This document shows positions 30,760 through 31,491 of a DNA stretch of 64,000 bases, in pieces (positions within the stretch are counted from its first letter, which is position 1; each line of letters starts with the position of its first letter). The stretch lies in contig JAHFRV010000001.1 in assembly GCA_023266095.1 (NCBI GenBank), positions 64,110-128,109 of the forward strand. Reading direction: 5' to 3'. Source of the stretch: Gammaproteobacteria bacterium. GTDB taxonomy: Bacteria; Pseudomonadota; Gammaproteobacteria; DRLM01. The position numbers and the translations under genes were made by a program. The notes under the pieces are model-generated. The model was not told where the DNA came from and made no database searches. It saw nothing but the letters and a program-made list of their open reading frames with translations.

Positions 30760-31002
30760 TCAACCTTGACCAATTAATACTTCGAGTGAAGGATCTATTC
30801 CCTCTACACGGATAGCCATGTATGCATCAGCAAGAACCCCGAATGCCACGTTAAGTTCTGTCCACTGATCACCCGCTTCAGCGGACTGTTCTTCGGAGGG
30901 ATCATCTTCGAGCATTTCCTCGCAAGCGGCCATTTGAGCTGAAATAGCGCGAATTGCTGTTGCCAAAACATTTGGAGGAATATTAATCATATGTTGCTCC
31001 AA
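30760..31002 (-). CDS. Small acidic helical protein (80 aa), candidate immunity protein (Tsi2-like by size and charge)
   Basis: Abuts the upstream 162-aa ORF with zero gap; acidic composition; AT-richer than flanking T6SS genes. Confidence 0.4.
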   Translation of the reverse strand: MEQHMINIPPNVLATAIRAISAQMAACEEMLEDDPSEEQSAEAGDQWTELNVAFGVLADAYMAIRVEGIDPSLEVLIGQG

Positions 31003-31491
31003 TTAGGTGAGTTCTCTAGCGGTTTCCACAAATGACCTCAACCAGACCAAAAACAGATCAAGTGGCATATCGTCTTTGGGGGCAATCGTGAAGTGGATGC
31101 CGGACGAACCTCTTCTGAAGTCTGCGTCCTTGGTGATTGCCAGTGCTTCAGGTATTTTTGATTCGGATGGGATCAGAAAACACTTCCAGCTACTGCTTTT
31201 GGAAAAAGGTGGCACTCGATCAAATACGGAAACCCCACGGTAGTGGCCAGCAATACTTCGACAACCACGCACAATCATTCTTCCATCGACCTCTTCGACG
31301 AGAACATCGGCCAAACGATGCGACCCATCAGGCTTGACCCAACCAACGAGCTCAGGATCGAGAATTCCCTTTCCCTGTTTGAATTCGCGCAATTTTTGAC
31401 CTCTGTAGAGATCAACTGGCGTGACGTTGTCGTAATAGCGATGCGGAATATTTGCATCCGCATATAGGTTTTTTAGAGTATCAGACACCAA
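31003..31491 (-). CDS. Candidate cytoplasm-acting T6SS cargo toxin (162 aa), Tse2-like / possible ADP-ribosyltransferase fold
   Basis: No signal peptide; LYRGQK and HYRGVSVFDR Arg-motif-like segments; sits between tssG and clpV in an AT-richer insert. Confidence 0.4.
   Translation of the reverse strand: MVSDTLKNLYADANIPHRYYDNVTPVDLYRGQKLREFKQGKGILDPELVGWVKPDGSHRLADVLVEEVDGRMIVRGCRSIAGHYRGVSVFDRVPPFSKSSSWKCFLIPSESKIPEALAITKDADFRRGSSGIHFTIAPKDDMPLDLFLVWLRSFVETARELT

Follow-up and report, generated by a model that had tools for sequence, protein, structure and literature searches.

A probable Tse2-Tsi2-family effector-immunity cassette between tssG and clpV in an H1-like type VI secretion operon

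Introduction

Tse2 was among the first antibacterial effectors of type VI secretion systems (T6SS) to be found (2010), and bacteria, yeast, and mammalian cells are all sensitive to it. In Pseudomonas aeruginosa its immunity partner is Tsi2. A second point of reference is Serratia marcescens, in which we take Ssp1/Rap1a and Ssp2/Rap2a (Tae4 family) to be effector-immunity pairs embedded in the T6SS core cluster.

The window analysed here is a 64,000-nucleotide stretch of contig JAHFRV010000001.1 (positions 64,110 to 128,109 of the forward strand; assembly GCA_023266095.1) from an uncultured gammaproteobacterium, and all coordinates below are those of the window. It carries a T6SS gene cluster in which two small genes lie between tssG and clpV. 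The original prediction, made from inspection of the DNA, proposed that these genes encode a Tse2/Tsi2-like toxin and its immunity protein. Our computational follow-up points to the same assignment, namely a horizontally acquired effector-immunity cassette of the Tse2-Tsi2 family placed in the tssG-clpV gap of an H1-like T6SS operon, and we put the probability of this reading at roughly 85%. Horizontal acquisition is suggested by the contrast in base composition with the flanking genes, by homology that is confined to the two genes, by the different genomic context of the nearest relative, and by the fact that this gap is normally empty. The link to secretion draws on the location between tssG and clpV, on relatives that reside beside PAAR and vgrG or tssE and tssF genes, on an Hcp1-like Hcp protein, and on the types of effector encoded in other gaps of the same cluster.

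Gene models and base composition of the locus

The two genes, their predicted translation signals, and their neighbours are as follows.

31003-31488, minus strand: tse2-like toxin gene, most likely 161 amino acids (aa) from GTG 31488, with stop codon TAA at 31005-31003; an alternative start at TTG 31491 is possible
30760-30990, minus strand: tsi2-like immunity gene, most likely 76 aa from ATG 30990, with stop codon TGA at 30762-30760; isoelectric point (pI) of the product 4.05
31497-31502, minus strand: Shine-Dalgarno-like AAGGAG of the toxin gene, found by sequence inspection, 8 nucleotides (nt) 5' of GTG 31488 and 5 nt 5' of TTG 31491
30991-31002, minus strand: 12-nt spacer between the toxin stop and the immunity start, holding GGAG (31000-30997) 6 nt before ATG 30990
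30698-31565, no strand: AT-rich islet that makes up the entire tssG-clpV gap including both genes, 868 bp, GC 0.484
31566-32612, minus strand: tssG, the upstream flank, encoding a baseplate subunit (PF06996, E = 4e-107; TIGR03347, 346 bits)
27947-30697, minus strand: clpV/tssH, the downstream flank, encoding the sheath-recycling ATPase (TIGR03345 VI_ClpV1, 1264.6 bits against a cut-off of 885)

Two adjacent minus-strand open reading frames (ORFs), 31003-31491 (162 aa) and 30760-31002 (80 aa), had been described as wedged between tssG and clpV. Both are present, each with a TTG start, and the profile matches listed above confirm the identities of the flanking genes. The start codons, however, are better placed a short distance downstream. 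For the toxin, GTG 31488 is the most likely start because it gives the N-terminus MSDxLK that is conserved in the family (here MSDTLK) and because it has AAGGAG 8 nt upstream. For the partner, ATG 30990 is most likely because it aligns with Met1 of Tsi2 and is preceded by GGAG at a distance of 6 nt. Thus, the longer ORF exists from TTG 31491 as first reported, but its product probably has 161 rather than 162 residues, and the second protein is indeed acidic and predicted to be all-helical, but likely has 76 residues rather than 80. The revised starts also replace the zero spacing that was originally read between the genes with 12 nt that hold a ribosome-binding site. Gene callers gave the 161-aa and 76-aa forms in an identical metagenome contig (L001) as well, and the closest relative pair (L021) has the same 12-nt spacing, with its toxin gene ending at 650 and its immunity gene starting at 663.

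The insert was also said to be richer in AT than its surroundings, and this description holds. The GC content of the islet is 0.484, compared to 0.649 for tssG and 0.627 for clpV. At third codon positions (GC3) the difference is larger, with values of 0.46 for the toxin gene and 0.33 for the immunity gene versus 0.77-0.79 for the flanking core genes. These contrasts indicate that the composition of the insert is foreign. A search for flanking direct or inverted repeats, which might mark an insertion, yielded just 12-15-nt matches at the level expected by chance. No promoter-like site was found in the islet by promoter scan, and the single terminator-like site reported by the terminator scan falls within tssG rather than in the islet. 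The lack of such sites is weakly consistent with co-transcription of the pair with tssG and clpV.

The toxin is a homologue of Tse2

The toxin matches the Pfam family PF18648 (ADPRTs_Tse2) with 37.6 bits (E = 4e-9, residues 19-154 of the 162-aa ORF), which is above the gathering score of 26.6 bits for this family. When the sequence is used alone, its best match in the PDB is Tse2 (5AKO_C, E = 0.0095), and a profile constructed from 31 toxin homologues strengthens this match to E = 2e-8 across residues 17-152. Pairwise BLASTP comparison with a P. aeruginosa-type Tse2 representative reveals 37% identity across 73 aa (E = 4e-9). An AlphaFold model built on the homologue alignment is of high confidence, with a predicted local distance difference test (pLDDT) score of 93.8 and a predicted template modelling (pTM) score of 0.88. 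The Foldseek comparison that accompanied the original prediction as a suggested check places the fold with Tse2 and not with an unrelated fold, since 5ako_C is the sole PDB match at E <= 0.001 (E = 1.2e-6, probability 1.00, TM-scores of 0.60 and 0.63, 153 aligned columns, 23% identity).

Taken together, the family threshold, the profile match, and the structural match establish that the toxin is a Tse2 homologue in both sequence and fold, as had been guessed. The accompanying suggestion that the protein might represent a novel family was rejected because the gathering score of PF18648 is exceeded and because about 200 clusters of relatives at 50% identity exist.

The small protein is a homologue of Tsi2

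The product of the second gene has 14 Asp and Glu residues versus two Lys and Arg residues, and its pI of 4.05 is identical to that computed for P. aeruginosa Tsi2. It matches the NCBIfam model Tsi2_fam (NF052667) with 24.1 bits (E = 3.6e-5), and its best PDB match by sequence alone is Tsi2 (4C18, E = 0.074). A more sensitive profile (A2) was assembled from the small protein and the ORFs downstream of toxin homologues at other loci, eight sequences in all. This profile recovers the Tsi2 entries 5AKO_A, 3RQ9, 4C18, and 3STQ with E values of 2.8e-7 to 6.7e-7, aligning residues 1-76 on 1-75.

The structural evidence is concordant. Although the prediction used an alignment of only two sequences, the model has a pLDDT of 90.2 and forms a helical hairpin with a short third helix (helices 6-28, 33-60, and 69-72). 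Its top ten PDB matches are all Tsi2 chains, with TM-scores of 0.77-0.85 and root-mean-square deviations of 1.5-2.3 Å. The small protein is therefore a Tsi2 homologue in sequence and fold, and the earlier guess of a Tsi2-like immunity protein is borne out by the family match, the profile, and the structure comparisons alike.

Distribution, pairing, and mobility of the family

A word-indexed search returned 31 relatives of the toxin, 30 of which carry a precomputed PF18648 match, and all 29 diverse representatives that we scanned match this family. An exhaustive profile search of 1.84 billion representatives yielded 199 clusters at E <= 0.001, including 75 at E <= 1e-10, so that public data contain roughly 200 clusters of this family when grouped at 50% identity. 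Matches in genomes come from Burkholderiales, Methylococcaceae, Caulobacter, Rhizobacter, Janthinobacterium, Vitreoscilla, Polyangia, and Entotheonellaceae.

The association of the two genes is consistent. In every one of 20 toxin loci (L001-L020), an ORF matching the Tsi2 profile lies immediately downstream on the same strand, and 12 of these loci had not contributed to building the profile. Several pairs are also found in a T6SS context. In L002-L004 and L006 the pair comes right after clpV and has PAAR and vgrG genes as neighbours, and the relatives in L002 and L006 share about 50% identity with the pair in the window. In L010 the pair lies beside tssE and tssF.

The nearest relative pair has protein identities of 78% for the toxin and 73% for the immunity protein, and it adjoins cupin and SUKH genes. 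Nucleotide similarity to this pair (71%) is confined to window positions 31491-30769, which coincide with the two genes exactly, and this limit indicates that the mobile unit is the bare bicistron. Nonsynonymous divergence (dN) from the nearest relative is 0.14 for the toxin gene, where synonymous divergence (dS) is saturated, and 0.24 for the immunity gene, where dS is 2.5. Because dN is far below dS in both cases, both genes are under purifying selection. By dN, the immunity protein evolves faster than the toxin.

Two much longer proteins, P0096 (1089 aa) and P0130 (1637 aa), contain seven separate Tse2-family profile matches each. These may be polyproteins or repeat proteins that carry Tse2-like modules.

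An H1-like secretion context and a proposed mechanism

All core genes of the cluster are on the minus strand and are arranged in the order tssJ, tssK, tssL, tssM, tagF, pppA, tssA, tssB, tssC, hcp, tagJ, tssE, tssF, tssG, clpV. The second half of the cluster (hcp-tagJ-tssE-tssF-tssG-clpV) is ordered as in the H1 cluster of P. aeruginosa. The gene for the presumed toxin carrier is as follows.

39340-39825, minus strand: hcp (PF05638, E = 2e-41)

The closest solved relative of this Hcp is P. aeruginosa Hcp1 (1Y12, E = 7e-62, 211 bits), while other solved Hcp proteins score 143 bits or less. Together with the gene order and the presence of TagF and PppA, this match upholds the H1-type context that had been proposed for the locus. 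The protein also retains Trp30-Ser31-Trp32. In Hcp1, Ser31 lines the lumen, and the S31Q substitution abolishes Tse2 loading in P. aeruginosa (PMC7043769). Given that Hcp is nearest to Hcp1 and that Ser31 is kept, the toxin is likely to be delivered inside the Hcp tube. Its mass of 18 kDa is within the size range of Tse2 and other small Hcp1-dependent effectors.

By analogy with P. aeruginosa, the system might operate as follows. The transcript of the tssG-clpV operon probably includes both genes. The 161-aa toxin, which has no signal peptide, would enter the lumen of an Hcp hexamer and be stabilized there, be fired into neighbouring bacteria, and arrest growth from their cytoplasm, as Tse2 does. 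The 76-aa acidic helical hairpin would stay in the cytoplasm of the producer, where it would bind the toxin directly and cover its active site, thereby guarding the cell against both its own toxin and toxin injected by sister cells. The least certain step is the chemistry: the family is labelled as having an ADP-ribosyltransferase (ART) fold, and toxicity may depend on oxidized nicotinamide adenine dinucleotide (NAD+).

As for the host, TypA from the window (60291-62099) has 84% identity to that of Sulfurivermis fontis and 83-84% identity to those of metagenome-assembled genomes (MAGs) from Thiohalomonadaceae and Acidiferrobacterales. The nearest TypA sequences, which are 97-98% identical, come from MAG contigs. 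TypA, TssC, and ClpV from the window are each the sole member of their own 90%-identity cluster among about 15 billion proteins, which suggests an organism with few sequenced close relatives.

Conserved residues and the chemistry of the toxin

Residue conservation was assessed in an alignment of the 29 diverse representatives, including a P. aeruginosa-type Tse2 (P0179), and positions are given in the 161-aa numbering. Asp61, Gly85, Ser87, His132, and Leu150 are invariant, and Leu27, Arg29, Pro113, Leu116, Pro137, and Met141 are nearly so. The toxin from the window carries every family-invariant residue. Besides Arg29 and Ser87, the conserved polar positions are Asp61 and His132, and these four residues are the likeliest candidates for the active site, to judge from the alignment. 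Ser87, located within GVSVFD, aligns with Ser80 of Tse2, whereas the equivalent of Tse2 Thr79 is Val. A T79A/S80A double mutant of Tse2 is non-toxic, yet it is stable and still secreted (PMC3325213).

The original argument for an ART fold drew on two segments, LYRG and HYRGVSVFDR, that resemble the Arg motif of such toxins. The arginine of LYRG is Arg29, and its near invariance agrees with that part of the reasoning. The arginine of HYRG, like a Gly-Cys-Arg segment and the Lys-Asp-Asp within APKDDMP, is conserved in the close subfamily only. This arginine is replaced by Gly in Tse2 and is absent from most of the family, and was therefore rejected as a family-wide catalytic residue.

An ADP-ribosyltransferase mechanism has, in our estimate, roughly even odds. 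Passages in reviews repeat that Tse2 is an NAD-dependent ADP-ribosyltransferase, a statement that rests on the 5AKO structure. Several observations weigh against this mechanism. No Glu is invariant or nearly invariant among the 29 family members, and thus none occupies the catalytic position expected for an R-S-E or H-Y-E enzyme. Searching the PDB with Foldseek returned no ADP-ribosyltransferase except Tse2, and none of the 29 representatives matched any other ART family in Pfam. Moreover, a 2025 review calls the mechanism of Tse2 unknown, and no ADP-ribosylation or substrate has been reported for this protein (PMC12133291).

The same observations, along with the invariance of Asp61, Gly85, Ser87, and His132 and the near invariance of Arg29, favour an alternative in which the pair is still a Tse2-family T6SS effector with its immunity protein, but in which the toxin uses an Arg-Asp-Ser-His site to catalyse some other reaction on a target conserved across domains of life. 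Two points argue the other way. According to passages in reviews, the depositors of 5AKO noted a likeness to NAD-dependent enzymes and ADP-ribosylating toxins, with conserved catalytic residues. In addition, an Arg on the first strand and a Ser on the next core strand correspond to the R-S-E arrangement, and in our model Arg29 and Ser87 do fall on predicted strands (28-33 and 87-90 in the 162-aa numbering), as read directly from the model. On balance, we regard this alternative as possible but unlikely. A wider conjecture, which we hold to be somewhat more doubtful still, is that Tse2-family toxins in general are not conventional ADP-ribosyltransferases and that their conserved, Glu-less Arg29-Asp61-Ser87-His132 site instead serves another reaction, whose target bacteria and eukaryotes have in common, and that the present cluster, with five occupied gaps, may be specialized for Hcp-borne cargo.

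Weighing the effector-immunity assignment

Several further points count against interpreting the pair as a Tse2-Tsi2-family effector-immunity cassette, and some of these concern the small protein. Its score of 24.1 bits is below the curated equivalog cut-off of 70 for NF052667. The same is true for all eight members of the immunity alignment, each of which matches the model (best E = 1.2e-9) while scoring below the cut-off. Pairwise BLASTP finds no match between the small protein and Tsi2, which indicates that the relationship is distant. In addition, Glu38 and Asp45 of Tsi2 are critical for binding Tse2 (PMC3325213), and in a phmmer alignment the 76-aa protein has Gly40 and Asn47 at these positions. 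Other acidic residues (Glu38, Asp41, and Glu45) are located near the lost contacts, and the family consensus of profile A2 also lacks equivalents of Tsi2 Glu38 and Asp45. The interface details must therefore differ from those of Tse2-Tsi2. Loss of these residues would be expected if each immunity protein is specific to its own toxin, which is the usual pattern, and the low equivalog score and altered contacts both fit a distant orthologue-like pair with its own specificity.

Other points concern the functional assignment. Toxicity, neutralization, secretion, and Hcp dependence are each extrapolated from a homologue with about 23-37% identity. The scan of window ORFs with 150 aa or more returned no VgrG, and no PAAR search was made among short ORFs. 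Furthermore, most family members that we examined are not beside recognizable T6SS core genes, which indicates that the cassette is able to exist outside T6SS loci.

This last point is also the principal argument for a different explanation, in which the pair is a non-secreted chromosomal toxin-antitoxin (TA) or addiction module that landed in the T6SS gap by chance and acts only in its producer, for example in locus stabilization or abortive defence. Neighbours of homologous pairs include restriction-modification or helicase genes (L007), an IS66 element and a KAP NTPase gene (L008), Rhs genes (L005), and cupin and SUKH genes (L021-L024), and the two genes travel together as a self-contained unit. 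In 2012, Li et al. drew parallels between type II TA systems and Tse2-Tsi2 (PMC3325213). The founding member Tse2, however, is a demonstrated substrate of the H1 T6SS, even though P. aeruginosa tse2-tsi2 (PA2702-PA2703) likewise resides outside the H1 cluster. The pair described here is located within a core operon of the Hcp1 type in which three other gaps hold Tae4, Tlde1, and GH24 lysozyme genes, and the relatives in L002 and L006 are found beside PAAR and VgrG genes. Moreover, the model of the small protein is a bare helical hairpin without the DNA-binding domain of autoregulating type II antitoxins. For these reasons, we consider a chance-landed TA module improbable.

The idea that the two genes are decaying remnants, whether pseudogenized or an inactive cassette, might draw on the neighbouring islet ORF that is broken by an in-frame TAG (cargo decay does occur in this cluster) and on the islet having no promoter-like site of its own, but it is very hard to sustain given that both ORFs are intact and full length with ribosome-binding sites, that all family-invariant residues are present, that dN is far below dS, that both structure models are confident, and that an independent metagenome contig carries identical copies.

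Cargo gaps within the operon

Among 50 other T6SS loci, the tssG-clpV gap is shorter than 200 bp in 44, and none of the 50 gaps holds a relative of Tse2 or Tsi2. In L045 (6034-6843), the gap contains a gene for a 129-aa protein with a Cys...His pattern that resembles a small amidase or peptidase effector, followed by a gene for a 136-aa protein with a signal peptide. The GC content of this gap is 0.37, versus 0.49 upstream. Further contents of the gap in other loci are a tetratricopeptide repeat (TPR) protein, a secreted protein, or a resolvase together with a Tn3 transposase. Such varied contents indicate that the tssG-clpV site is an occasional cargo slot. So far, only the lineage described here has Tse2-Tsi2 cargo in this position, and no TssG relative above about 53% identity was present in the metagenome collection, save for one truncated match at 61%.

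The gap between tssG and clpV is one of five inter-core gaps of the cluster (27947-52744) in which an AT-richer islet encodes a putative effector of at most 165 aa followed by a small protein. The small second proteins of the five islets are membrane-associated, lipoprotein-like, or acidic. The three other gaps in the hcp-clpV half have a GC content of about 0.48-0.50 where measured, compared to 0.62-0.65 for core genes. The four additional islets are listed below.

50073-50848, minus strand: tssK-tssL gap, encoding a 161-aa Tlde1-domain protein (PF10908, E = 1e-31) and a 97-aa hydrophobic protein (50073-50366)
38333-39252, minus strand: hcp-tagJ gap, encoding a Tae4 amidase effector (38809-39252; PF14113, E = 1.4e-14) and a 154-aa protein with a lipoprotein-like signal (38333-38797)
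36312-37220, minus strand: tagJ-tssE gap, encoding a GH24 phage-type lysozyme (36726-37220; PF00959, E = 5e-28) and an LprI-type lysozyme inhibitor (36312-36716; PF07007, E = 4e-12)
34629-35488, minus strand: an ORF without a family match, about 165 aa long and interrupted by an in-frame TAG at 35276-35278 (70-aa and 80-aa pieces), and then a 121-aa lipoprotein-like ORF (34629-34994)

The Tlde1 domain is an L,D-transpeptidase-like T6SS effector type. The 154-aa protein encoded at 38333-38797 is presumably the immunity protein for Tae4, and the GH24 and LprI-type genes look like a muramidase effector-immunity pair. The in-frame TAG at 35276-35278 is also present in the independent metagenome contig L001, and the interrupted ORF may be a decaying effector gene or one that is expressed by read-through. 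Overall, the cluster looks like a T6SS that is armed entirely with cargo of a size suited to Hcp.

The lysozyme islet has an additional feature in that the tagJ-tssE junction is duplicated around it (window positions of about 36100-36170 and 37300-37440; L001 positions 4072-4173 and 5329-5391). The last 21 or so residues of TagJ are copied just upstream of tssE with 90% identity, and approximately the first 44 residues of TssE are copied just downstream of tagJ with 68% identity. This pattern suggests that recombination with a donor bearing the ends of the flanking core genes brought in the lysozyme cassette.

Significance and comparison with known systems

The pair represents a known family (Tse2/Tsi2) and not a new kind of system, and its unusual aspect is the position within a core operon. 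It leaves current understanding unchanged and is a useful, ordinary addition. Nevertheless, the analysis offers several points of broader value. The Tse2 family reaches far beyond Pseudomonas, with members in uncultured sulfur-cycle-related gammaproteobacteria, Burkholderiales, Caulobacter, Methylococcaceae, Polyangia, and others, and a Tsi2-type partner accompanies the toxin at every locus examined (20 of 20). The inclusion of distant members shrinks the conserved core to Arg29, Asp61, Gly85, Ser87, and His132, which are thus targets for mutagenesis. Finally, the placement of the pair is a clear example of T6SS operons gathering exchangeable cargo cassettes.

Tse2 (PA2702 of P. aeruginosa, the founder of PF18648, with structure 5AKO) has 158 aa compared to 161 aa for the toxin described here, and neither protein has a signal peptide. 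The two share the motifs R-x-P/A-D, G-x-S-V-F-D-R, I-P-x-x-L-x-[IV]-x-x-D, and H-[YF]-T-I-x-P, a Tsi2-type gene directly downstream, and an association with an Hcp1-type T6SS. Their identity is about 23% in the structural alignment and 37% in the C-terminal 73 residues. In the close subfamily to which the present toxin belongs, there is an additional Gly-Cys-Arg strand segment, G-x-S is preceded by an Arg, and an A-P-K-D-D-M-P motif is present. In contrast, Tse2 lacks the Gly-Cys-Arg segment, has Gly in place of this Arg, and carries M-P-A-K-P-M as its final motif. Thr79 of Tse2 is Val in the toxin from the window, and Val109-Lys110, which Tse2 requires for secretion and toxicity, are Ile-Thr. 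The genomic settings differ as well. PA2702 is distant from the H1 cluster, whereas the present gene is located inside the core operon between tssG and clpV, and the host is not a Pseudomonas species but an uncultured gammaproteobacterium near Thiohalomonadaceae and Acidiferrobacterales.

Tsi2 (PA2703; NF052667; 3RQ9, 3VPV, 3STQ, 4C18, and 5AKO) has 77 aa versus 76 aa here, and the two proteins have the same pI of 4.05. Both consist of two long antiparallel helices and a short C-terminal helix and align from Met1 to the C-terminus, and Tsi2 is likewise encoded directly after its toxin gene. The similarity is detectable by hidden Markov model, profile, and structure methods only, and not by BLASTP.

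The arrangement of the genes resembles that of the Ssp/Rap pairs, in which genes for small cargo effectors and their immunity proteins also lie in between the T6SS core genes, probably as part of the same transcript, and like Serratia the present cluster carries a Tae4 pair. The Ssp/Rap toxins target peptidoglycan and are countered by periplasmic immunity proteins, whereas the pair described here would, by analogy with Tse2-Tsi2, comprise a cytoplasmic toxin and a cytoplasmic immunity protein. The present cluster also differs from the Ssp/Rap arrangement in that five separate gaps are occupied.

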